Sequence record: NC_100372.1
Direction: 5' to 3' (one strand)
Source of the DNA: a phage
DNA length: 64,000 nucleotides
Shown here: positions 2,920 to 16,400 of the stretch, one piece after another
Numbering within the stretch: position 1 is the first letter of the stretch
Layout: each line of letters opens with the position of its first letter
Translations under genes and position numbers: made by a program
Notes under the pieces: model-generated
What the model was told of the DNA's origin: nothing
Database searches by the model: none
The model's input: the letters and a program-made list of their open reading frames with translations, nothing else

Positions 2920-4104
2920 TCAAGCTTTAGCTAAAATGGCGCTAAACTCTTCACCAAACTCTTTTACAATCTTCATCAGGTTTGGGTATGCTTTGATCAG
3001 CTGAGCAACGATCTTGTCCCTGCCTTTACCAATAAGTAAGGCATTTCCTAAGGCGTTAGGTTTCATCATCGCCATAAAGACTGAGAATACAAAGTCTCGG
3101 TTCTCATCCTTGAAATTTTCCCAAAGGAAATCAAGGAAGTTTGCCACACAGCTGACAAGATCTTCGTCGGAGATACTTGCATTTTCCATCATATTACGAA
3201 TAGCGATACAACCTTCTGACCCCAGAATCCACAAGATGTCTGGCTGCTTAGGACCTACATATTCTTTGCAGCCTCCTGCCATAATCCGACCGATTTCTGG
3301 CAAGTTTCGTTTCTTGGTGTGGTAGGTCCAAATTTCTACCGCTGCAGTGTGACCAATTGCACCTTGTAGAAGGACACGGGCCATAGCGTCAGAAATAATA
3401 CCGCTGTCAAAATCGTGCAGGATGTCAGATGCAGCAACCCAAGATCGCGGTGTGGCAAAAGATGGACAATTAATCTCAGCCATGGCCTCATAATTATCAA
3501 TGGCTGATGGGACTCTTTTCAGATATCCAATTACAGAGGAGTGAACCCCATTAAGGAATGCGTAGTCCTCAATAAACACCTCTGCATTGCTTGTAACTTC
3601 TACAATAATAAAGCGGTTAGCTAGAGGAGCTTCGAGCGCCGAAAGAACAGCACCATCTGTAGCACGGTTACCTGCAGCTACAAAAACAGAACCCTTAGGA
3701 AATGCATAGGTACCGCACTTGTGGTCGAGCATAATTTGCATTGCAACCTTCTGCAGGTAGTTATCCGCATGAGTAAGCTCGTCTAGAAAGATAATTCCGC
3801 TCCAGTCCGGATCTGCAGGCCAAAATTCTGGAATTGCAAACACTGTACGTGTAGTCCCATCCGACTCCACAGGGATAGGCAGTCCAGATAAGTCAGCAGG
3901 ATCTTTATCTGACAACCGCACGTCAACCAGGTTGTCATCTCGCTCACCGAACATATTATCAGCAATCTGCTTCATCACCTGGCTCTTCCCCACACCCATC
4001 GGTCCTAAAATCAGGACAGATCGATTATGACGCTGGGCAAATTGAATAATAGCTGGCAACTCGCGGACAGTGATTTGACCACTTTCGAATACGTTTCTTG
4101 ACAT
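2920..4104 (-). CDS. MoxR/CobS-like AAA+ ATPase
   Basis: 394 aa. Walker A GPMGVGKS, Walker B-like IIFLDELT; size and layout fit MoxR/CobS-family AAA+ proteins. Confidence 0.65.
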   Translation of the reverse strand: MSRNVFESGQITVRELPAIIQFAQRHNRSVLILGPMGVGKSQVMKQIADNMFGERDDNLVDVRLSDKDPADLSGLPIPVESDGTTRTVFAIPEFWPADPDWSGIIFLDELTHADNYLQKVAMQIMLDHKCGTYAFPKGSVFVAAGNRATDGAVLSALEAPLANRFIIVEVTSNAEVFIEDYAFLNGVHSSVIGYLKRVPSAIDNYEAMAEINCPSFATPRSWVAASDILHDFDSGIISDAMARVLLQGAIGHTAAVEIWTYHTKKRNLPEIGRIMAGGCKEYVGPKQPDILWILGSEGCIAIRNMMENASISDEDLVSCVANFLDFLWENFKDENRDFVFSVFMAMMKPNALGNALLIGKGRDKIVAQLIKAYPNLMKIVKEFGEEFSAILAKA

Positions 4105-4800: not shown

Positions 4801-5058
4801 TCAGTCTACCTCTTCTTCTCGTTGCAGTTCAAGATACCCATAGGTCTGGATATCTTCAAAGGTGTGGAACTCTCCATCTGCCGCTAAGGCACGGACAACC
4901 TGGCATAGAGTTTTATAAGGTACTTTCTCCAAACCCAGATTCAGCGCAGGAAAAACCTTATCTAAGTCAACAAAATATACAAACTGTAGCTCACCAGTTT
5001 CAAAAGGCGTATCTTCGATAAACATCTTCTCGGCATTAGTTAAGATTTGCACTTTCAT
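4801..5058 (-). CDS. hypothetical protein
   Basis: 85 aa ORF in operon context. Confidence 0.4.
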   Translation of the reverse strand: MKVQILTNAEKMFIEDTPFETGELQFVYFVDLDKVFPALNLGLEKVPYKTLCQVVRALAADGEFHTFEDIQTYGYLELQREEEVD

Positions 5059-5414
5059 TATTCTGCCTCCTCTTCTTTTTCTTCAGCATTAGTTTCAGTA
5101 CCACCCCACTCTGGAGTTTCCACCTCGACAGTAAACTCACGCACTACACGGTAATTGCCCATGAAGCGCTCCACTTCTTCAAGGCTTATGGAGAGGCCAT
5201 TGGCAACCAAGTCTGCAGCACCCTTCTCTACCAGGTAGTCCAGATTGGCTTCCAAGGCTTCAGGCTCAAACCCTGTCAATGCAATCATATAACCTTCCCC
5301 TTCATCAGGGAGGGCAATACAGCCCAACTGATTTTCTTTAAAAAAGCAGTGACCATCACTATTGATTGGTTGCTCATTGCAGTAAATAGCTGCACGATAA
5401 GTAACTTTAGACAT
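5058..5414 (-). CDS. hypothetical protein (acidic C-terminus)
   Basis: 118 aa ORF. Its first 24 nt (ATGTCTAAAGTTACTTATCGTGCA) are repeated exactly, in inverted orientation, inside the plus-strand gene at 7257-7280. Confidence 0.5.
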   Translation of the reverse strand: MSKVTYRAAIYCNEQPINSDGHCFFKENQLGCIALPDEGEGYMIALTGFEPEALEANLDYLVEKGAADLVANGLSISLEEVERFMGNYRVVREFTVEVETPEWGGTETNAEEKEEEAE

Positions 5415-5426
5415 TGATAGGCCTCC

Positions 5427-5705: not shown

Positions 5706-6601
5706 ATCTCCGCGTAAATTAAACTGGAATCAGTATACTTCTTTAGTGGGTAAATATCCTGTCCATAGATGCCGTCATTAAACACCTCATCTACCCAAAG
5801 GCTACACTTATATCCCATCATCTCTAAAACACCCATCTCTTCTTCGGTAAACTTATCACCGCTCTTGCAAGATGTCAACACCTCATTCTGTACTCTTGCT
5901 ACCTCGAAGCGATTATTGGCAATATCGCTATTGGCGATCAAATACTCACCTAAAGGGTGTGCGGCATTAAAGATGCACAGTGGGCGGTTGACGTAATAGT
6001 CTCCAGGTGTATAAAAATTATTGAGGTCTTTCACTAGGACATTCTTATCAGTCACTTCATTTATAACATCATGCATATCGCACATCTTTATATGTTTGAG
6101 GATTCCATCCCCCATCACAAAATAAAAACTTGCTGAGACACTCTCGGCATAGATCTTACTAGATCCGTTGTAGTTGTATTTTACTCGGATGCTAACGGGG
6201 GTTTTTCCTGTCGCGTTAGCCATCATCCAAAGAAATGGCAGCTCATACTTCTCCTCTGAGGAAACAAAAGGTGAAGTTGCCAGAGATCGGAAACCTCCAG
6301 AGAAGTTGAAAGTTACAGAACCGCTCCGGCGGTATGATACTGCGTATTCCACTTTTATATCAACATATCCGTTGGAGTAAGTATGCCCTCCATTATCAAG
6401 GTATGTCCACTTATCTGACCCAGATACCAACCTCCGCTCAATTACCTTCATCACTACAGGGATTAGCGGATTAGTACAAACCGATTTTGAAGTAGCTTTA
6501 TCATCCAAAGCCTCGTAAATTGCAGAAAGGATATCACCTGCTGAGAGATTGGTTGTGATATCTTGTTTCCACCTGGTGCTAAAACTGTTAAGATTTGCCA
6601 T
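5702..6601 (-). CDS. hypothetical protein
   Basis: 299 aa ORF, first gene after the minus-strand early promoter; SD AGGAG about 9 nt upstream of ATG. Confidence 0.5.
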   Translation of the reverse strand: MANLNSFSTRWKQDITTNLSAGDILSAIYEALDDKATSKSVCTNPLIPVVMKVIERRLVSGSDKWTYLDNGGHTYSNGYVDIKVEYAVSYRRSGSVTFNFSGGFRSLATSPFVSSEEKYELPFLWMMANATGKTPVSIRVKYNYNGSSKIYAESVSASFYFVMGDGILKHIKMCDMHDVINEVTDKNVLVKDLNNFYTPGDYYVNRPLCIFNAAHPLGEYLIANSDIANNRFEVARVQNEVLTSCKSGDKFTEEEMGVLEMMGYKCSLWVDEVFNDGIYGQDIYPLKKYTDSSLIYAEI

Positions 6602-6641
6602 GAGTAAGTGCTCCTATGTTAGTTTTCTTTTGAATGGGTGC

Positions 6642-6670
6642 ACTATATCTGGGATTTAGAGTAAAGTCAA
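6642..6670 (-). promoter_or_regulatory. sigma70-like promoter, minus strand (TTGACT-17-TATAGT)
   Basis: On minus strand: -35 TTGACT (plus 6665-6670), 17-nt spacer, -10 TATAGT (plus 6642-6647); positioned upstream of 5702..6601. Confidence 0.5.
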
Positions 6671-6683
6671 CACGTTTTTGAGG

Positions 6684-6712
6684 TTGACATCTACCCAGGC
6701 GCTTGGTAAGAT
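6684..6712 (+). promoter_or_regulatory. sigma70-like promoter, plus strand (TTGACA-17-TAAGAT)
   Basis: -35 TTGACA 6684-6689, 17-nt spacer, -10 TAAGAT 6707-6712; back-to-back with the minus-strand promoter. Confidence 0.5.
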
Positions 6713-6743
6713 TTCTCCACCTACAGAGAACAAGAGACAACTC

Positions 6744-7721
6744 ATGAATCTTGAAAAATATTATACACCAGAAGAGTTAGAGCGCTTGCTCAAAAAATAC
6801 AGACGCAAACAGAATAACGCACGGAAACGGGATATAGAGTTCAACCTGTCATGGGAAGAATATCTCCTATTTGGTAAAAAACTTTTAGGAGAGGGAGTAT
6901 GCGACTATACCCTTATACCTTTCGACATGCACACAGATGAAAACGGACTGGGAAATCCTTTCTACCCATCTCTAGAGCGGATAGATGATGAAGGTCCTTA
7001 CGCAATTGATAATTGTTGTGTGGTAGGATTGAGGTGCAACTCTCTGAAGGACTGTCTGGTAGATAAAAAGACTGCAGTCTTGATTAAAGACGAAACTGAT
7101 CGAAAAATTGTCCAGCAGATGATGCTCCACCTGAGCGAAGAGCGTATGGAGAAATTGAAAGGTGATTATACTTTTGAAGATTTCATCTTGCAATATGGAA
7201 CGGAAGAGGATAAACTAGCACTCTTTGACGAAGAAGAGGAGGAAGATATGCTACCTATGTCTAAAGTTACTTATCGTGCACCCAAGAAGCACATTTCTGA
7301 CATTGTAAACGAACCTATCACAGAAGAGATTGAAGAAATGACGCAACAGGTACATGAAGAGGAAAAAGAGACTCAGGAGGTCGAAGAGGGGCTTACAGAA
7401 GAGGTTCCTGCACTACCTGATGATGTTGAGATTGCCAAAGCTTACACCTTCTATTGTCAAACGTTCTACGATGTAGGCATGAAAGTTGATCTGTCGTTCA
7501 GCCAATTTAAGAGCACATACATTCGAAAATGTTGTGCTTTAACTGGTGAGCGTCTCGGGGCCGGACTTAAACCACTATTAGTTACCGACTGGAACAAAGG
7601 TTTCACCAAAGGTAACTTCATGGTGGTATCTCCAATCATGGAAAAAGCTATGACAGACCTTATGAAGACCACCCGCATGACAATGACCGAGTTGGCTGGT
7701 ATTTTCAAGCACGTTAAATAA
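6744..7721 (+). CDS. protein with two degenerate HNH-like (HNH_3-type) modules separated by an acidic linker
   Basis: Track ORF 6678..7721 starts at TTG inside the promoter; ATG at 6744 (MNLEKYY) is the likely start. Module 1: ARKRDIEFNLSWEEY ... CDYTL ... SLERIDDEGPYAIDNCCVVGLRCNSLK; module 2: CALTGERL ... VTDWNKGFTKGNFMVVSPIMEKA. The His of the S-I-D-H-I-D consensus is Arg or absent. Confidence 0.45.
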   Translation: MNLEKYYTPEELERLLKKYRRKQNNARKRDIEFNLSWEEYLLFGKKLLGEGVCDYTLIPFDMHTDENGLGNPFYPSLERIDDEGPYAIDNCCVVGLRCNSLKDCLVDKKTAVLIKDETDRKIVQQMMLHLSEERMEKLKGDYTFEDFILQYGTEEDKLALFDEEEEEDMLPMSKVTYRAPKKHISDIVNEPITEEIEEMTQQVHEEEKETQEVEEGLTEEVPALPDDVEIAKAYTFYCQTFYDVGMKVDLSFSQFKSTYIRKCCALTGERLGAGLKPLLVTDWNKGFTKGNFMVVSPIMEKAMTDLMKTTRMTMTELAGIFKHVK

Positions 7722-7725
7722 TGAC

Positions 7726-7742
7726 AGGGGCCATTGGCCCCT
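7726..7742 (+). other. GC palindrome / stem-loop (GGGGCC-ATT-GGCCCC)
   Basis: Perfect 6-bp GC stem between 6744..7721 and 7755..9215; no clean U-tract follows. Near-identical to the stem of the terminator at 13437-13452. Confidence 0.35.
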
Positions 7743-7754
7743 TCTGGAGTTTTA

Positions 7755-9215
7755 ATGGATAGCAGAAGTTCAGAAATCATTACCGCACAAAAAGATGATG
7801 CCTTGCGAATGCTGCAGGCCGCTCGCATGTATCTTCTTGAAAAGCTGCCGTTTTATGGCACACTGTTGTCAGGGTTGCAGTTCGTAGAAAACCACACATG
7901 GTGCTCCACTATGGCAACAGACCATAAACGCATCTACTACAGCCCTGAGTTCATTATGGGGTTGGCAGATGAGCGTAAAACCATTCTTAAAGCATCTCTG
8001 ACTGACAAGCAGTTTGAGATGGCTGAGGTTTTCTATTCCCCAAAATCTGTGAAAGAGGTGGCATTTCTTCTGTCACATGAGGTGGGGCATATTATCTGTG
8101 ATCATCTGGTCCGTGGTAAAAGCTTTGAGCCGGAACTGTTCAATATTGCTTGTGATCACGTTATCAACACAGGTCTTGTGGTTGACTTTAGCAAGCCTCC
8201 TTGTGTTTTCTTCCCGAAGGGGAAAAGCACTGAGTTCGTAAAAGGTAAGCCTTTTGGCTTCTTAGCTAATTGCTACTGCGACATGAAGTTTCATGGATGG
8301 ATTGCTGAGAACGTCTATGCAGTTCTTGATAAACAAAGAGATCAGAATGGCGGTAAAAGTAAGAACGGTAAAGGTGAGAACTCCCAAGGAGATAAACGAC
8401 AAACCGATGATCACATGAGCGGGAACGGTGGCACTAGTGATGATCTTGGAAAGGCTATGGGGTATGATCAGCCGCAACCAGTAATCAGTCAATCTGATAA
8501 AGATCAGGCCATGCAGGATTCTGGTGACATGTTGGAAGCAGCAATGCAAGCTTCAGGAGGTCGTTGCCCCGAGGCGGTGCGCGAGTTTGTCAAAAACAGA
8601 GGCAAGCCTGTAATCAATTATATAGATATTATTAAGCAACGTATGTTATCTAAAAGAAAGGCTGAGTTAACCTACAGAAAACCTGGTCGCCGATCTGGGT
8701 CTTTGACCACCACAATGCGAAAAGTTGGAGCTATAAACAAGAATCAACACGTTATTGTTCCTGGTCGTAATCCGGAAAACACTATAGATATTGTAGTGGC
8801 TTTAGACGTTTCTGGGTCGATCTCACAAAGAACTTTAAAGAAAATGTTCAATGAGATCACCGGGTTGTGCAATCTGTATAAAGAGTTTAAGGTTACGATG
8901 TTCTGTTGGTCAACCGAGGTTGGAGAGGTTAAAGTATACACTCGCGGTAACATCGATGAGATGATCAACTATGAGGTCCACTCAACATGGGGCACAACAG
9001 CCGCCTGCGTGTTCGAGTATCTAGATGCTAACATACCGAATGCAAAAGATGTCATCGTCCTTACCGACCTCTACTTTGAGCATAACTTTGAACAAAAGGC
9101 TGTTGACAACAAGTGGAAAAAGTACGATACTTTATGGGTTCTCACCGAAGGGTATAATAAAAATTATATCCCGAGCTTTGGGAAAACTGTGGAATTAATC
9201 GAGTACGCTAAGTAA
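7755..9215 (+). CDS. vWA-domain protein with N-terminal HExxH metallopeptidase-like domain
   Basis: Track start 7734 is TTG; ATG at 7755 has SD GGAG 5 nt upstream. HEVGH motif (LLSHEVGHIICDH) in N-terminal half; MIDAS-like DxSGS (IVVALDVSGSIS) in C-terminal half; Gly/Asp/Ser-rich linker between. Confidence 0.6.
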   Translation: MDSRSSEIITAQKDDALRMLQAARMYLLEKLPFYGTLLSGLQFVENHTWCSTMATDHKRIYYSPEFIMGLADERKTILKASLTDKQFEMAEVFYSPKSVKEVAFLLSHEVGHIICDHLVRGKSFEPELFNIACDHVINTGLVVDFSKPPCVFFPKGKSTEFVKGKPFGFLANCYCDMKFHGWIAENVYAVLDKQRDQNGGKSKNGKGENSQGDKRQTDDHMSGNGGTSDDLGKAMGYDQPQPVISQSDKDQAMQDSGDMLEAAMQASGGRCPEAVREFVKNRGKPVINYIDIIKQRMLSKRKAELTYRKPGRRSGSLTTTMRKVGAINKNQHVIVPGRNPENTIDIVVALDVSGSISQRTLKKMFNEITGLCNLYKEFKVTMFCWSTEVGEVKVYTRGNIDEMINYEVHSTWGTTAACVFEYLDANIPNAKDVIVLTDLYFEHNFEQKAVDNKWKKYDTLWVLTEGYNKNYIPSFGKTVELIEYAK

Positions 9216-9230
9216 GAGAGGATGGTATTT

Positions 9231-9488
9231 ATGGCAACAGAGGTAGTAATTAAAGCTGAACGCCCAGTTAAAAAAGCTATCAACACGTTCCCTGTAGGAA
9301 CCATTGTGAGCATGATTACAGAGTCAGGCCGTGTATCTACACTGCTAATCGTGAAATCTGCATGCTCATCTTGTGTGTGGGCATACGATCTTGACGAGAA
9401 AGAACTGAAAGATTTTGTCGGGGAGCTGAAAGCAACAGAGCTTGACGCTCGTATCGAAGTATTTGGTGAAACTATGGAGGAAGAGTAA
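9231..9488 (+). CDS. small protein, member 1 of a tandem paralogous family
   Basis: Second ATG (9231) has better SD spacing than track start 9222. Shares Cys position and C-terminal E-I-x-V/I-F/Y pattern with the next two ORFs. Confidence 0.45.
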   Translation: MATEVVIKAERPVKKAINTFPVGTIVSMITESGRVSTLLIVKSACSSCVWAYDLDEKELKDFVGELKATELDARIEVFGETMEEE

Positions 9489-9751
9489 TGACTACAAAAA
9501 TCACCATTGCAGAACCAAAAGCTAACACGCAACCTATCGAAAAGTTTAAATGCGGTGAGGTGGTAACATTCACACCAGATAATGAAGATGCCAAGATTTT
9601 TGCCATGGTCACAGCCGAGTGGATGTGTGACAATACCACACAGGTGCTGCGTTTTGACACCTATCTTACAGATGAAATCAGGAACGACAAGATCGTGACT
9701 GGTGTGGATACTGAGATTATTTTCTACAAGAGCTTTTTAGAGGGTTTCTGA
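9488..9751 (+). CDS. small protein, member 2 of a tandem paralogous family
   Basis: 87 aa; ATGA overlap with upstream gene; KFxxGEVV ... C ... EIIFY pattern. Confidence 0.5.
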   Translation: MTTKITIAEPKANTQPIEKFKCGEVVTFTPDNEDAKIFAMVTAEWMCDNTTQVLRFDTYLTDEIRNDKIVTGVDTEIIFYKSFLEGF

Positions 9752-9752
9752 T

Positions 9753-9986
9753 ATGGCAAAAATTCGTAAATTATCCAGCAATCAGGTTGTGAAAGACTTT
9801 GAATCTGGAGAGATCTTGTATGTCCGTGATGCAGATGATGAATGTGAAGATCTTGTTATGCTGGTAGGGCACGCTGAAGACGGATGCATCCAGGCTGTTT
9901 TTCTTGAAACAGCGATGGTGCACTGGATAGAGCTGGACCTGAAAGCACGAAAACCTAAAGCAGAAATCATTATTTACGAAGATTAA
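9753..9986 (+). CDS. small protein, member 3 of a tandem paralogous family
   Basis: 77 aa; starts 2 nt after upstream stop; DFESGEILYV ... C ... EIIIYE pattern. Confidence 0.5.
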   Translation: MAKIRKLSSNQVVKDFESGEILYVRDADDECEDLVMLVGHAEDGCIQAVFLETAMVHWIELDLKARKPKAEIIIYED

Positions 9987-10002
9987 CAAGAAGGAGAGAG
10001 CC

Positions 10003-10452
10003 GTGTTGAGCAAACGTGAATGCGACAGCATTAGCCTGAATTCTTATAAGAAACAATGGTTTGGGGTAGAAGTTTGCCGACTACGGCTGGGCTCCTACTT
10101 GAACTTCGTCCATTATGAGAGTGACAGTCGTATCGTTTCTTATGAAGTGTTCTACACTAAGAATACATTCGAGCTGAGACGTAAGGTGGATGGCGGGAGA
10201 TCTACCGCCCAGAATAATTGGGAAACTATTCTGCCTCCAGATGTTATAGGAAGTCCCCTGAATGTATCTGAAGATGAAAATCTTATGGTTCATGCTATGA
10301 TGGGACTTGACAGCTTAGAGCTGGCGATCTATGATATGTCCATCGAAGCAGTTAAGTTGGACTACATCGAAAACACTTTAGAGGAAGGTATCAAGAAGTT
10401 TCTCGGTGAGAAATTGAAAGCCCACTTTCATAAGGAGCTATATCTGTTATGA
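10003..10452 (+). CDS. hypothetical protein
   Basis: 149 aa; GTG start with strong SD AAGGAGAG 4-5 nt upstream. Confidence 0.5.
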   Translation: MLSKRECDSISLNSYKKQWFGVEVCRLRLGSYLNFVHYESDSRIVSYEVFYTKNTFELRRKVDGGRSTAQNNWETILPPDVIGSPLNVSEDENLMVHAMMGLDSLELAIYDMSIEAVKLDYIENTLEEGIKKFLGEKLKAHFHKELYLL

Positions 10453-10694
10453 AGACCCGTAAAGAACGTAACAAGATTTTACCTGGCGCTCTCGAACATA
10501 TGATGAAGTGCAGATCTATCTGGCACTCTGCCAAGGAGGGGCAGCATGTAGTCGTGGTTAGTGATAATGCCAACCCGTTCGGTGATTATGTCACCATGAT
10601 GACTCCATACATCCGCGACGGTGTTGTGGAAGTGGTTCCTTATAGTGGTCTGCATGAGAGGCATTTTGAGAGCACTTTGCTAGTGGAGCTATAA
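10449..10694 (+). CDS. hypothetical small protein (possible diverged fourth member of the paralog family)
   Basis: 81 aa; ATGA overlap with upstream gene; GxHVVVVSD ... VVEVVPY loosely echoes the family pattern. Confidence 0.45.
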   Translation: MKTRKERNKILPGALEHMMKCRSIWHSAKEGQHVVVVSDNANPFGDYVTMMTPYIRDGVVEVVPYSGLHERHFESTLLVEL

Positions 10695-10696
10695 TT

Positions 10697-11263
10697 ATGG
10701 CGGTCAATGTGGCTTACAACACAGGAAAGCTTGACAGAGACATTGGGTGTCTTGTCCTTTCAGATACAGAGGAGTATTGGGGTTATGGGTTGCTGTCAGA
10801 CCCACACCCGAGCAACCTTGTATCAACAGTGCTATATCGCTACGACCCTGTACCAACGGTACACGACAAAGACATTCACGACCTTCGGATCAAGTGTCTG
10901 GAAGATCTTCTGAACAATGGCTGCAACGATCTGCGGGTAGCCAAGGAGAAGCTTACAAACATTCACAAAGAGGAAGTGATGAGCACCCTCAGTAAGAGAT
11001 CAGTGCACAAAAAGATGATGCTGAACTTTGCAATGGGTATCTACATGGATGGGTATAAGGGAGGGGATCCGATCCTCAAGCTTCGCTGCCCAACACTGTG
11101 GGAAAGAGTGGTTGACAGTAAGGACGGTACTGCCCTGCTAGAACTCCACACTGCAGGTTGGATTTGGCGGTATGTGGACGGATACCCTCTGTGGGCATGT
11201 GGGCCCGGTGAGTTTGTTGACAGACCTAGTGCGGTGGTGGATTTGCTATTGCAGTTTGAATAA
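10697..11263 (+). CDS. hypothetical protein
   Basis: 188 aa ORF, 2 nt after upstream stop. Confidence 0.5.
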   Translation: MAVNVAYNTGKLDRDIGCLVLSDTEEYWGYGLLSDPHPSNLVSTVLYRYDPVPTVHDKDIHDLRIKCLEDLLNNGCNDLRVAKEKLTNIHKEEVMSTLSKRSVHKKMMLNFAMGIYMDGYKGGDPILKLRCPTLWERVVDSKDGTALLELHTAGWIWRYVDGYPLWACGPGEFVDRPSAVVDLLLQFE

Positions 11264-11318
11264 AAGGTGAGTTATAAAGCATTCATACACCTATCAACAA
11301 TAAACAGGAGAGACTGAG

Positions 11319-11594
11319 ATGACGAAAGAAGAGGCAGATGTATTGGACTTTGCATTAGAGGCTACGCAGGAGGCTTTGGTGTTAGCTTGGAAAATGAACC
11401 AGCGTGCTGCAGAATGCAACCGCCGCATCAATGAGATTCTAGGTATGTCTATGTATGATTTCACCATGCATGCTGGAGAGATTCCTGAATTAACTGCTGA
11501 GATGAATGATCTTGACAATAAAATTAATATCATTCTGAAGACAGCAGAAACAACTCACCAAACCGCCCGTAAATTTATCAACGAGAAGGTGTGA
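11319..11594 (+). CDS. hypothetical protein
   Basis: 91 aa; SD AGGAGAG upstream of ATG. Confidence 0.5.
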   Translation: MTKEEADVLDFALEATQEALVLAWKMNQRAAECNRRINEILGMSMYDFTMHAGEIPELTAEMNDLDNKINIILKTAETTHQTARKFINEKV

Positions 11595-11596
11595 AT

Positions 11597-12070
11597 ATGG
11601 ACTACAGCTACTGCGGAGAAGAAGTACCTTTTAACTACAGCAATCTCACCACGAGCAATCCATATGAGACTCGTCACGGCACACACATCATTGCTATTGA
11701 CTTTGATGGAACGTTTAATGCGAGCCCTTTCATCTTCTCCCGCCTTATTAAGGACCTGAAGAAGGAAGGGTGGACAGTCTATCTTGTGACTTTCCGATTC
11801 ATCACTCAAGACAACGTGGACATCGAATACTGGCGCAAGGAGCTTGATGTTGGAGTGTTTTATACTGGGGGTGTTCAGAAGGCCGCTTTTCTGGCGCAGT
11901 TTGATATCTACCCAGACATCTGGGTTGATGATTCTCCAGCTTGCATTCCAGCTAAGAATCAGCTAGAATTTGCAATTAAGGAGATCGAGTATAAGTCTGA
12001 GGCTAAACGTAACGGATGGCCCTTTATTATTGAAGATTACCCAGATCCTGAACCGGAGAAAGAACCATGA
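11597..12070 (+). CDS. HAD-superfamily phosphatase-like protein
   Basis: HAD motif I IAIDFDGTF and a later WVDDSP acidic motif; ATG at 11597 preferred over track GTG 11591. Confidence 0.45.
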   Translation: MDYSYCGEEVPFNYSNLTTSNPYETRHGTHIIAIDFDGTFNASPFIFSRLIKDLKKEGWTVYLVTFRFITQDNVDIEYWRKELDVGVFYTGGVQKAAFLAQFDIYPDIWVDDSPACIPAKNQLEFAIKEIEYKSEAKRNGWPFIIEDYPDPEPEKEP

Positions 12071-12237
12071 AACGAAGATACCATTACGTGATGTGGAAGT
12101 TATATCATGGTGCTGCTAAGGCTTATCGAGCCGTGTTTGGTAATGACAATCACTTCATTATGTTACACCTTACATCCATTGAGCATCACAATGAGTGGAT
12201 TCGTGAAATCGTAATAGGTGACAAAGACTTTAAGTAA
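12067..12237 (+). CDS. possible small ORF (56 aa), translationally coupled
   Basis: ATG overlaps stop of HAD gene (ATGA); below the 60-aa track cutoff; fills an otherwise empty 200-nt gap. Weak evidence. Confidence 0.25.
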   Translation: MKRRYHYVMWKLYHGAAKAYRAVFGNDNHFIMLHLTSIEHHNEWIREIVIGDKDFK

Positions 12238-12267
12238 AGTATGGCTTTCTAGATGGAGACTGACTAA

Positions 12268-12648
12268 ATGTGCAAGTGTAAATCTTATAATTGGAAAGTG
12301 AAAGGTGCCAAGCATCCAAATGTTATCGTTGATGTGCCTAAAAAGCTCCGTGACGGCAAAAAACGTGTGTGCCTTGATAAGTGCATGGCTAAACCTATCA
12401 TGAGTCTATGGGCGGCAGGATTGAAAACTCTAAACTGCTGCTGTGGTCATAACAAAGATGTTCCAAGCATCATTATCCCAGAGGATGCAGACCCTAAAGC
12501 TTATGCCAAAATACTGACTCGCTACCCCAGCACCTTTCTGATCGGAAAATGGTGTCACGATGAACTTCAATGGTGGATAGCGTACGGTAGTGTAGGTGCT
12601 GCTTTTGGCTTCCCAGCTTTGTCAGAGCGCTACGTCAAATCATCATAA
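12268..12648 (+). CDS. Cys-rich hypothetical protein
   Basis: 126 aa with many Cys (MCKCK, CLDKC, NCCCGH); SD GGAGAC upstream. Confidence 0.45.
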   Translation: MCKCKSYNWKVKGAKHPNVIVDVPKKLRDGKKRVCLDKCMAKPIMSLWAAGLKTLNCCCGHNKDVPSIIIPEDADPKAYAKILTRYPSTFLIGKWCHDELQWWIAYGSVGAAFGFPALSERYVKSS

Positions 12649-12657
12649 TCTATTTTA

Positions 12658-12675
12658 AGGCCTCAAACGAGGCCT
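12658..12675 (+). other. stem-loop (AGGCCTC-AAAC-GAGGCCT), not a clean terminator
   Basis: 7-bp stem just after stop of 12268..12648; no U-tract on either strand. Confidence 0.3.
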
Positions 12676-12752
12676 GTGCCTTCATAAACTGCCTACCTCT
12701 GTGTGATTACCTCTCTAAATAAAATACCCTCTCAAATTGCTTAAAATTAAGC

Positions 12753-12781
12753 TTGACATCAACACCAGATTTATATATGAT
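12753..12781 (+). promoter_or_regulatory. sigma70-like promoter (TTGACA-17-TATGAT)
   Basis: -35 TTGACA 12753-12758, 17-nt spacer, -10 TATGAT 12776-12781; upstream of 12812..13219. Confidence 0.5.
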
Positions 12782-12811
12782 TATCTCATCAACCAAGCAG
12801 AGGAGATTGTC

Positions 12812-13219
12812 ATGGATAATCTTGCAAGTGTGAACGTCGAAATTGTTAAACTAAAGTTCTTGGGCTTTCGAGACCCTAATTCTCTAACAGCTATACTGAT
12901 GGATACCCACTTCACACCTGGGAAAGAGTACACTGCCTTCCGTTATATTTGCGGAGATCACGAATCGGCCTATAGTGTGAATACAAACCTCGGCGAGGGA
13001 TATTTCATCAAAGATATCACAGATCACTTGTGGGGTATGTGGGAATTGGTGGAAGAAGAGAATAAATCCCTTCCCAAAGAGATTTGGGTGCACACCTTCC
13101 ACACAGGTAAGTTCGGAGGTACGGAACATAAGTCTATCCACTATGATGAAGTAAGTGCCATCAAACAACAAGCTGTGCTTGGTGGATCTGTAGAAAAATT
13201 TGTTAAATGCGAGGACTGA
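12812..13219 (+). CDS. hypothetical protein
   Basis: Track ORF 12737..13219 contains the promoter; ATG at 12812 (MDNLASV) has SD GAGGAG upstream. Confidence 0.5.
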   Translation: MDNLASVNVEIVKLKFLGFRDPNSLTAILMDTHFTPGKEYTAFRYICGDHESAYSVNTNLGEGYFIKDITDHLWGMWELVEEENKSLPKEIWVHTFHTGKFGGTEHKSIHYDEVSAIKQQAVLGGSVEKFVKCED

Positions 13220-13222
13220 GAA

Positions 13223-13423
13223 ATGGCTGATTTTTGCAAAGATTGTTCTGAAGAGTTGTTTGGTTTTGACTGCAGAGATCTGGAAGGACTGATCACAGAA
13301 GACCAGTGGAAGGAAGGTTATGCGGCACCTGTTATTTGTGAAGGTTGTGGCTATACCTATGTTGACCATAAAGGTAAGCGCGTCAAGCCGTCTGAAGATG
13401 GGGCATGTTGGGAGTATTACTAA
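13223..13423 (+). CDS. small Cys-rich zinc-ribbon-like protein
   Basis: 66 aa; CxxC ... CxxC ... C spacing (CKDC ... CEGCGY ... C). Confidence 0.4.
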   Translation: MADFCKDCSEELFGFDCRDLEGLITEDQWKEGYAAPVICEGCGYTYVDHKGKRVKPSEDGACWEYY

Positions 13424-13429
13424 CTATAA

Positions 13430-13458
13430 AAAGAAAGGGGCCAAATGGCCCCTTTTTT
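13430..13458. terminator. bidirectional intrinsic terminator (GGGGCC-AAAT-GGCCCC flanked by T/A runs)
   Basis: 6-bp GC stem with TTTTTT on plus and a U-rich tract on minus; sits between convergent genes 13223..13423 (+) and 13471..19104 (-). Confidence 0.6.
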
Positions 13459-13470
13459 ATCTACTACTTG

Positions 13471-16400
13471 TTAAAGAGAGAAAGTCGCGTAGGCTCCCAG
13501 ACGATACTGCTGGTCACCAGGGAACATAACACCTATAGAGGCTGTCCCTAGAATCCTGCCTTCCTTTCCAGACTCCATTCTGAACCCTACCCATCCGGAA
13601 CTCCTTGCAGCCTCGATGTTGTCGCTATACCCAAAAGTGGCAAGCTCGTCAACACCAGCTCCAAACAGCAACTGAAGCTGACTTCTCGGAAGCCCTATAA
13701 TTTCAGGAATATATGCACCAAAGTACACCATCTGCCCTACCTTAGGACCGCTGCCGTACTCCATCGGCTTGCTTGTAGAGAAAGTCTTCATACCAGAAGT
13801 CCCTGCCGGATTAGGGTATGCCCCGTTTGTTGCTGTGCCTATCCACATTCTCCACTGAGGTGCCATCTGTCTGACAGTGAAAGATGTTGAAGACGTTTTG
13901 CGGCCTGCATCATCCGTAACTACAAACTTTATAGTGACATTACCAGGGGCTTTAAATGTTACCAATCCTGTGGTAGCATCCACTGTTGCAATGTTAGTAT
14001 TACTACTTTCCCAAGTCTTTCTAATCCCTGGCACATTGGAAGGGGTAATAGAAGGTTCCTGCATCTGCAGTTTACCGCCCACAATCCCTATGCCGTTACC
14101 TGGATTATACAACGCACCAACTTCATCTACAATGTTACCTGCCTTGAGGCTGTACTTTTTAGAGAAGTTGTAAGTGCCGTTATATGCGTGTGTCCCTGAG
14201 AAGGTTACATCTGCCTTGCCGTTGGAGATGCAAACCAAAGCATACTTCCTGTCAGGCAACTGTGCCCCAGTTTCTGGGTGAGTTTTACCCACCTGGAACA
14301 CGCTCGGGTCAGTAGAGTCGTGGCTATCACTAACAGAGCTTGGACCACCCATCAACTGTGACAAGCAATTCCTTACCCATGTCCAGTTATTGTCACTGGA
14401 GAAGTCTACAGTCAAATCAAACACAACCCACTCATTTGGCTTCCACACAGGTGTTGTGATCAACTTACCAACACCCCCACCCTGAAGGGTAGGAGATTGT
14501 TCAGTGATCAAGGCAGAGTATGCCAGAGTTCCCAACTGCATAGTCTGGCTTGCTGTTCTCACTACCTTAGAATCAGCATCTGTGAAGTTGTTGATGATCT
14601 GGAATGTGCCATAAGTGTTTTTACAGGTAATTCTGGCATTCAGTGTATCAATCTTTCTCACATCTGCCATGGCAGTGTTAGACACAGAGAAGTCAGAAGC
14701 TTTAGCTGAGTTTGCTGCAACAGCCGGATCAACGTTGAGGGTTGCGTTGAACTGGCAGGCAGGAGTAACCAGTAGCTTGTTATCACCTATTTGCTTCCAT
14801 GAAACACTTTGAACAGGGAGATTCCATTTAATACCTGAGAAAACTTTAGCAACCCTTGGTCCCAAAGCTCCAGTTCTGTTGTCTTTACAACACATAGACA
14901 TGGTGATTGTTGACGGAGTGGCCTGACCAAACAATTGCTGGGCTTTTGCAGAGGACATAGTGTAGAAATTGTCCTTAACAAACTCATCAGCTGCTAACGA
15001 TCCGTCAGATCTCCACCATTGTACCTGGTACCCTGTCTTATCCCAGCCACCAACCTGCTTTAAGTCCTCCCAAGAGATTTCCAAATCCCCCGTGGTAGGG
15101 TTGATTGCCGCAGTTCCCGGTGTTCCAGATGACCATATTGGTATATCGAACCACGCTGGCTTAACAGACTGCACTGCGTTAGGGCCTATTGCAGCAGCAA
15201 GTTGTTGACCCATCAATACGCGAGCATCTTTCACCAGACCCCACTCGATCATGGATCCGGAGTAACCCTCTTTCTTATACGCGGATGACCCATTCAAGTG
15301 AATAAGTCTACTTGTGCCGAAGTTATGTGCTCCACCGCCGTTGTCGTCTGCAAAATTGGTTATGATTCTATCCCTGATGTTTTTCCATGCCCTGCCCCCA
15401 ATCTCGTAGTCATGGTCATAACATCTTTGCAGCGTTGTCCAGCAAATGATCGCCATCCTTCTGCCGTTACTGAAGCCAAAAGCCTGATCGTTAAGCTCTC
15501 TCCACAAATAGCAGTTAGTGGTCCACATAGCTCTGTGAATGTTGAACCAGTTTATAGACTTGGCTGAGTTATCCCACTGAGTCCCAGGTAATTCAGGCCA
15601 CACTGCATTAACCAGCATGTCTTCTGTTCCTGCATCAACCAAGAACCCTCTTACCTTTTTACCCATGCCTACCCTGTCTTTTGCAATCCAACTGCCAAAC
15701 AATCTCAGTTTTGGACCGTAAACAACATCTTCCGGATGCTCAAAAGAGACATACTTCAGATATACTGTAGGGTCACCATAGGTGCCATCACAAACAGCTT
15801 TGTGCATGTTCTCGCCAAGGTCTAGACGAAGTCCTGTTACAACTTTTGACGTGTCGGTGAATTTGTCTGTTAAATCAAATTCATACCACCACCAACCTGC
15901 ACCCAACAATACCTTCTTACAACGCTGCGCATCTGTATCAGATATTCTCTTATCTCCTGAAAAAGGTGAGTCAGCAAACTGATAGTGCAGAGCAATTTCA
16001 AAAGGATGTGTGGAGGTCCCGTTTTCTGCAAGGACTTGTTTACCTATTAAGTCACACTTAATAATCATCACAACACGTTTGTACCCATTTGTTACTGGGA
16101 TCTGCATAGACATAGATGTCCCGTCCATGTTTGATCTCAGCGCAGTCATGATGATATAAGGATCAACGGCATTACCAAGAGTTTCAGGCCCTGGAATTAT
16201 CTTATACTTCTTAACCTGCCCCATGATGTAATCACTGGCGTAAGTTGCAGCCTCGAAGCAAGATCCCCCGTTAGGCAGTTCCCCTGGCCCCCAGAAAAAT
16301 GCGCCATAACAGTTATAAAACCACTTGTTAGGGTCGTATTTGTTCTTGAAGGTCTGAACCTCGTTGGCCTGTTTTGTCAAGAAAACCTGCGTATCTGTAA

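Follow-up and report, generated by a model that had tools for sequence, protein, structure and literature searches.

The question raised by this locus is whether a block of plus-strand genes, found in a 64 000 nt stretch of phage DNA (sequence record NC_100372.1, hereafter the window), is variable accessory cargo, as the original prediction made from the sequence had proposed, or a regular transcription unit of the phage. Our analysis favours the latter. With a probability of roughly 0.75, the block is a rightward, sigma70-dependent unit of the genus Vequintavirus, belonging to the early or middle, non-late class and predicted to encode a takeover factor together with a series of orphan proteins. 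On sequence comparison it is a unit conserved at genus level, built on a skeleton conserved at subfamily level, and not a variable or mobile island.

The open reading frame (ORF) listing placed fourteen plus-strand genes (numbered here g1 to g14) at 6744–13423, between minus-strand genes with ends at 6601 and 13471, and the GC skew was positive solely between 7 and 14 kb of the window; both observations agree with the strand arrangement and gene number originally predicted. A 1877-aa minus-strand tail-fibre gene, convergent with the block, begins at 13471. Deposited annotations of eight related genomes gave gene calls in agreement with those of the window. Eight of the 13 gene junctions were spaced by 3 nt or less. 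The ATGA overlaps, which were said to couple most of the genes, were present at only two junctions (10449 and 12067), with one further TAATG junction (9488).

Relationship of the block to rV5

A 7-kb query (6600–13600) matched 121 phage records, 113 of which covered at least 80% of the query at 90–99% DNA identity, and nearly all were rV5-like phages of Escherichia, genus Vequintavirus. The window was 92–98% identical to rV5-like phages with matching genome coordinates, several of the matches being located at coordinates equal to those of the window (e.g. rV5_ev168, 6577–13683). Given this agreement in position and identity, the window corresponds approximately to the initial 64 kb of the genome of an rV5-like phage.

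Four transcription units have been proposed for rV5, one of which is 'genes 11-26' (Kropinski et al., 2013; Virol J 10:76; PMC3606486). Table S4 of that paper lists P010, P011, P025, t026 and t027, with sequences identical to those of the window, and in Table S3 gene 4 is called 'MoxR - ATPase' and gene 12 carries the DUF2201_N assignment; the Srd homology of gp11 was also called there. The block is the rV5 unit 'genes 11-26', and all the structural elements of the original prediction were already published (PMC3606486). The additions made here are incremental and consist of the double Srd module of g1, the pairing of g2 with an ATPase, the paralogy of g3 to g5, the HAD motifs of g10 and the orphan status of g8 and g12.

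Sixteen records titled 'Campylobacter phage' (host C. jejuni, ∼135–143 kb; e.g. MG065655 and MG065644) were 92–93% identical to the block. These records may represent mislabelled or contaminant rV5-like coliphages.

Promoters, hairpins and terminator

The back-to-back promoter pair with host-type consensus expected at the start of the block was recovered. P010 (6642–6670, minus strand, TTGACT-17-TATAGT) is predicted to drive the leftward unit, and P011 (6684–6712, plus strand, TTGACA-17-TAAGAT with an extended -10 TG) is positioned at the block start. A third promoter, P025 (12753–12781, plus strand, TTGACA-17-TATGAT), is intergenic. All three were predicted to be of the sigma70 type, with 10–11 of 12 hexamer positions matching and 17 nt spacing. 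When eight other Vequintavirus genomes were aligned, the hexamers of P010 were invariant and those of P011 nearly so (-35 invariant, -10 either TAAGAT or TACGAT), while the spacers were polymorphic. One TTGACA-17-TATGAT promoter had been described within the block; this description holds for P025, but the sequence occurs twice, the second copy being located within the g6 coding sequence (10307–10335). Conservation is uninformative for this second site, since the surrounding coding sequence hardly varies. In total, 25 promoter-like sites were observed, compared with 14.7 ± 3.8 in shuffled sequences.

The block ends, as predicted, at a bidirectional intrinsic terminator (t026/t027, 13437–13452, both strands), which is common to the block and the convergent tail-fibre gene. 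Its sequence is AAAGGGGCC-AAAT-GGCCCCTTTTTT, each strand has a U-tract following the stem, and folding gave −19.7 kcal/mol on the plus strand (z −5.3) and −18 kcal/mol on the minus strand (z −3.6). The stems were invariant across genomes and the loops varied. The near-identical GC palindromes previously noted (GGGGCC-loop-GGCCCC) were present in exactly two copies in 64 kb, at 7727–7741 and 13437–13452, against none expected from shuffles. The first copy (GGGGCC-ATT-GGCCCC, plus strand) lies between g1 and g2, has no U-tract and has a minimum free energy of ∼−14 kcal/mol (z −1.3); it was kept in seven of the eight other genomes, being missing in FV3, and may act as a weak attenuator or RNA-stability element. 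Another hairpin, GGCCTC-AAAC-GAGGCC, follows g12 (12658–12675, plus strand; −13.1 kcal/mol, z −4.0). This hairpin and the -35 hexamer of P025 were invariant in the eight aligned genomes, even in MaxBurger, which has different downstream cargo. An Rfam search of 6000–14000 found no RNA families.

The late-promoter motif reported for rV5 is TGGTAAAATA. Matches to this T4-late-like motif (one mismatch or fewer) numbered 16 in the window, compared with 5.6 expected, and 14 of the 16 were minus-strand matches within the structural unit (17149–59522), consistent with the proposed rV5 late promoters. The block holds a single match, a mismatched copy inside the g1 coding sequence. The enrichment of the motif outside the block therefore places the block in a sigma70-type, non-late class.

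Conservation, selection and variation

Within the genus, most block proteins were 95–100% identical. The ratio of non-synonymous to synonymous substitution rates (dN/dS, pooled NG86) was 0.01–0.11 in thirteen genes and 0.28 in g11; these values indicate that all fourteen ORFs are coding and under purifying selection. The GC content of the block was 0.434, compared with 0.446 in the remaining window. Variation within the genus was confined to a few spots, namely the g3 slot, g11 (77–98% identity) and the P025/g13 region. Searches with the concatenated proteins found that only g1, g2, g6 (weakly) and g10 persist in other genera (Seunavirus, Avunavirus and a Klebsiella relative). In these three lineages the order g1-g2-g6-g10 is kept, the unit is again divergent from a leftward one and an Srd-like gene comes first. 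Ten of the 14 genes are restricted to the genus.

The description of the block as variable, 'accessory' cargo is not supported by these data, given the coverage of at least 80% in 113 of 121 genomes, the high protein identity, the purifying selection, the typical GC content and the presence of the unit in three other lineages. The original prediction had also held that the block would be an ordinary set of core early genes if its content and order were conserved across distant relatives and its genes matched replication or nucleotide-metabolism functions. The first half of this was found, as gene order is kept in the genus and the four-gene skeleton persists across genera, but the genes match no replication functions.

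An Srd-family protein encoded by g1

The first gene of the block, g1 (rV5 gp11; 6744–7721, plus strand), encodes a 325-aa protein of the Srd family with two degenerate HNH/EndoVII-like modules and an acidic linker between them. It matched PHROGs 3118, 1400 ('Srd anti-sigma factor', E = 6e-11) and 1035 (endonuclease VII), with labels that include 'decoy of sigma70'. By BLASTP, residues 8–143 aligned with residues 4–133 of T4 Srd (E = 6e-8), and a C-terminal region (249–295) aligned with Srd residues 30–80 (E = 5e-4), a segment also matched by the N module. Since both regions hit one Srd segment, g1 comprises two Srd-type modules joined by the acidic linker. A counterpart of the C-terminal half of Srd was not found in g1, and the full-length Srd architecture is not reproduced. 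The full-length architecture of g1 itself recurs in 207 phage records, among them Acinetobacter and Aeromonas myoviruses.

The motif SLER.D...GN...N is common to g1 and T4 Srd. It resembles what we take to be an HNH core, with Glu-Arg replacing the usual Asp-His, and this altered core suggests that g1 is a binding protein more than a nuclease. A PDB sequence search with g1 found nothing, and comparison of the 14 block proteins with the genes of the T4 srd region detected no similarity except that of g1 to Srd. T4 Srd is an early gene product that was first annotated as an anti-sigma decoy. According to PMC13232886 (citing Qi, 2015), it binds the N-terminal half of RNase E and stimulates host mRNA decay. 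For g1 at least, the host-modulation role originally suggested for the products of the block is plausible.

Positions 5391–5420 (minus strand) and 7251–7280 (plus strand) form an inverted repeat of 30 nt, matching at 28 of 30 bases, which places in the g1 acidic linker a copy of the ribosome-binding region and first eight codons (MSKVTYRA) of the minus-strand gene 5058–5414. A second repeat of 16 nt (5062–5077 and 7231–7246) matches the acidic tail of the same gene. Among nine genomes checked, the linker patch was present only in this phage and HdK5, the others having a different linker, and from its sequence the patch looks like a short ectopic conversion. The patch creates a possible internal start in frame (GGAGG...ATG), upstream of the C-terminal Srd module.

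The g2 protein and its probable ATPase partner

The product of g2 (rV5 gp12+13; 7755–9215, plus strand) is a 486-aa, N4 gp25-like protein with a DUF2201_N metallopeptidase domain and a VWA-like domain. Both Pfam matches exceeded their gathering thresholds (PF13203, 101.1 bits, cutoff 23.2; PF09967, 43.8 bits, cutoff 26.4), and the HExxH (HEVGH) and metal ion-dependent adhesion site DxSxS (DVSGS) motifs were intact when read in translation. Homologues were found in N4-like phages (including N4 gp25), RaK2 and Thermus phiFa.

A MoxR-type AAA+ ATPase gene (rV5 gp4; 2920–4104, minus strand), homologous to N4 gp24, is located outside the block in the leftward unit. By BLASTP its product matched the gp24-like protein of RaK2 (E = 2e-34) and gp24 of PhAPEC7 (1e-22). 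The ATPase and VWA genes are linked in three unrelated phage groups: they are neighbours in N4-like phages and in RaK2, and in phiFa ∼1 kb lies between them. This adjacency is not found in the window, where the ATPase gene is on the opposite strand at a distance of 3.6 kb. The ATPase is, on homology, the probable partner of g2, and its location in the leftward unit implies that the pair is present but split across the divergent promoter. The same split arrangement was also apparent in Seunavirus, Avunavirus and the Klebsiella relative. A PADLOC screen, which covers defence systems and not their inhibitors, gave just P-loop noise for the ATPase and nothing relevant.

The end of the leftward unit carries an rIIA homologue and a Hydrolase_2 cell-wall hydrolase, at 1–1983 and 1980–2480 respectively (both minus strand). 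In T4, rIIA is an early gene, and the rIIA homologue in the leftward unit therefore fits with both divergent units being early.

A probable HAD phosphatase and the orphan proteins

When the 14 proteins were searched against Pfam, NCBIfam and PHROGs, informative names were obtained for g1 and g2 only. With the libraries used, the original statement that the products have no recognisable fold holds for 10–11 of the 14, and most products are, as described, small, acidic or Cys-rich orphans.

The 157-aa product of g10 (gp21; 11597–12070, plus strand) is a candidate phosphatase of the HAD superfamily. Residues D35xD37xT39, T65, K95 and D111D112 were invariant in six homologues of 29–97% identity, drawn from Vequintavirus, Seunavirus, Klebsiella and Kuravirus phages, and these motifs make a HAD-superfamily phosphatase probable. 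A Foldseek search with a weak structural model gave a best E of ∼0.01, with several HAD proteins mixed with other Rossmann-like folds. In BP9, g10 is annotated as two overlapping coding sequences and 61% of g10 aligns; the split is probably a frameshift suggesting dispensability, or else a sequencing error.

Three tandem paralogues, g3 (9231–9488), g4 (9488–9751) and g5 (9753–9986), all on the plus strand, encode acidic proteins of 77–87 aa with dN/dS of 0.01–0.10. Comparison of g3 alleles with g4 and g5 by hhalign gave 91.9% probability (E = 7e-7, 78 columns). HdK5 and B9-1 have four copies of this family, with two g3 alleles that are ∼40–41% identical to g3 of the window. Small ORFs between g1 and g2 of other genera were considered as members of the family and rejected (∼1% probability). 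The 149-aa orphan g6 (gp17; 10003–10452, plus strand) follows g2 in other genera too, with matches of 25–26% identity located directly downstream of the g2 homologue in Seunavirus and Avunavirus. The 'tail protein' label attached to g6 through PHROG 6790, and copied in several GenBank records, is without supporting evidence.

The plus-strand genes g7 (10449–10694), g8 (10697–11263) and g9 (11319–11594) encode genus-restricted orphans that match PHROGs of unknown function and have dN/dS of 0.02–0.08. An exhaustive HMMER search with g8 recovered two full-length remote relatives among 1.84 billion representatives. A short-stretch match of g8, repeated in three large proteins (two with tectonin domains), was attributed to chance, as it was not conserved in the true homologues, and similarity of g8 to T4 ModA/ModB was not found. 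The most variable gene of the block, g11 (12067–12237, plus strand), encodes a basic 56-aa protein, and g12 (12268–12648, plus strand) encodes a 126-aa Cys/His-rich orphan of a narrow family. No fold match was found for a model of g12 of moderate quality, and a PDB sequence search was also empty. The deposited label of g12, TYW3 methyltransferase, was rejected after neither its sequence nor its fold showed similarity to TYW3. Both g8 and g12 remain orphans after exhaustive searching and modelling.

The terminal cassette

Downstream of P025, g13 (12812–13219, plus strand) encodes a two-module protein, the modules of which match separate PHROGs and Kuravirus ORFs, and g14 (13223–13423, plus strand) encodes a 66-aa CxxC...CxxC protein. 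In MaxBurger g13 is replaced, and in FV3 it is preceded by two additional genes. Homologues of g14 that are 60–72% identical were found in FelixO1-like and T5-like phages (T5.062). Judged by sequence, g13 and g14 form a moron-like terminal cassette.

The T5 homologue of g14 sits inside a tRNA gene cluster, and a more distant copy (50% identity) is present in Pseudomonas phage 119X. Kuravirus (phiEco32-like) phages carry homologues of g10 and of the g13 C-terminal module ∼500 bp apart, which suggests that the small genes corresponding to g10 and the g13 module travel together between unrelated virulent coliphages. An antisense ORF of 161 aa (12884–13369, minus strand) overlaps g13 and g14; the low dN/dS of the plus-strand frames suggests that it is spurious.

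Proposed function and alternative explanations

The anatomy, homologies, conservation and coding status described above were observed; when the block is expressed and what each of its products does biochemically are inferred. Host RNA polymerase would start at P011, back-to-back with P010, and transcription would read through 12 tightly packed genes, be reinforced at P025 ahead of the two-gene terminal cassette and stop at the bidirectional terminator common to the convergent late tail-fibre gene. By analogy with T4, where the target is RNase E, g1 would most likely bind a host RNA-metabolism or transcription factor and so favour phage over host expression. The g2 Zn-metallopeptidase/VWA protein would most likely act together with the MoxR-type AAA+ ATPase of the leftward unit, the gene for which is 3.6 kb distant. 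On this scheme g10 would be a HAD phosphatase, g3 to g5 a tandem paralogue family and seven further proteins orphans.

Several points weigh against this interpretation. Transcript data for the Vequintavirinae were not found in the literature, and 'early' is argued from promoter type and analogy; sigma70-like promoters occur throughout the rV5 genome (PMC3606486), so promoter type alone leaves timing unfixed. The difference in architecture between g1 and Srd means that the RNase E function may not transfer. No role for gp24/gp25 or DUF2201 was found in the literature, where the function is listed as unknown. For g10, no Pfam, NCBIfam or PDB-sequence match was obtained, including by profile search, and the AlphaFold2 model was poor (pLDDT 53); the homologue search gave only four close matches.

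Among the alternatives considered, it seems rather unlikely that the block is an anti-defence or counter-immunity island, in which small proteins inhibit host defence and the cargo turns over in an arms race. About 10 of the 14 products are small orphans, mostly of net negative charge, and turnover is visible at two hot spots (g3, with its alleles and additional copy, and the P025/g13 slot, where genes are replaced or inserted). Moreover, unrelated coliphages (Kuravirus, T5-like and FelixO1-like phages) share g10, g14 and the C-terminal module of g13, and the probable frameshift that splits g10 in BP9 suggests that this gene may be dispensable. However, at least 80% of the query was covered in 113 of 121 genomes, the proteins are mostly 95–100% identical with purifying selection on all of them, and the composition is typical of the genome. 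Characterised inhibitor families (e.g. Ocr, ArdA, Acb, Tad and Gad) were not found in Pfam, PHROGs or NCBIfam, no dedicated anti-defence library having been searched, and individual genes may yet have such a role. In the BASEL data the Vequintavirinae, including the block-bearing Bas54, are 'exceptionally susceptible' to restriction-modification systems and commonly hit by abortive infection systems; this sensitivity speaks against the island where restriction is concerned. A composite host-takeover scheme, in which the gp24-like ATPase and g2 remodel or cleave a host target, g1 redirects RNA decay and the g3 to g5 array and the P025 slot supply counter-defence, was judged unlikely.

It is improbable that these are ordinary early genes supporting nucleotide metabolism or replication, with the gp24/gp25-like pair and the HAD phosphatase serving dNTP supply or DNA metabolism and the orphans acting as accessory factors. 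In N4-like phages and RaK2, genes for dCTP deaminase and/or thymidylate synthase are located close to the gp24/gp25 pair; in the Klebsiella relative the unit includes a MazG-like pyrophosphatase and is adjoined by a thymidylate kinase and a phosphohydrolase. The g10 motifs are also compatible with a nucleotidase. Set against this, none of the block proteins gave a significant match to a replication or nucleotide-metabolism family, 10 of the 14 genes are genus-restricted and the rV5 replication and nucleotide genes lie elsewhere, from gene 82 onward (PMC3606486). A late or structural role for the block is suggested by the 'tail protein' label of PHROG 6790, which several GenBank records repeat for g6, and is highly improbable: the sole late-motif match is mismatched and within coding sequence, the block runs convergently towards the structural unit, of which it is not a part, and 'MS evidence' in rV5 Table S3 is given for structural-unit genes only and for none of genes 11-26 (PMC3606486).

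A rightward, non-late, sigma70-type unit is therefore the interpretation that we prefer. As a feature it carries little weight, being a published unit of a common, well-sequenced coliphage genus that has been found again. The rV5-like phages, which are candidates for therapy, are among the phages most often isolated from E. coli; of the 14 genes of the unit, all conserved and under purifying selection, 10 are without an assignable function, and the pairing of a gp24/gp25-type ATPase with a metallopeptidase-VWA protein has been retained in phages ranging from N4-like podoviruses to jumbo phages. Functions assigned to these genes would inform the biology of host takeover, and the sequence gives no pointer to a new kind of system.

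Comparison with known systems

The closest known counterpart of the block is the rV5 'genes 11-26' unit, with which it shares genome position, gene order, P010, P011 and P025, the terminator t026/t027 and the Srd call for the first gene. The two differ in that 16 genes are listed in the reference and 14 in the window. The rV5 genes 12 and 13 (441 and 81 aa) correspond to one intact 486-aa ORF (7755–9215) in the window and in most relatives, and the small overlapping ORF listed as rV5 gene 23 was left uncalled in the window. In addition, g1 of the window has the lineage-specific linker patch.

T4 Srd resembles g1 through homology over its N-terminal ∼130 residues, and both genes are found among small takeover-type genes. 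Srd is 248 aa in length, compared with 325 aa for g1, and in g1 a second N-type module takes the place of the Srd C-terminal half, the modules being joined by a long acidic linker.

With phage 'morons' the g13-g14 cassette shares a conserved hairpin and promoter (P025) preceding the genes, a terminator at its end and a slot in which the cargo differs between genomes. It differs from them in being located in an early-type operon of a lytic phage and not in a prophage late region, and in the conservation of g14. The N4 gp24/gp25 pair, known also from RaK2-like jumbo phages and phiFa, is matched by DUF2201_N and DUF2201 in g2 and by a homologous ATPase; there the two genes lie side by side, whereas here they are found on opposite strands, flanking a divergent promoter.

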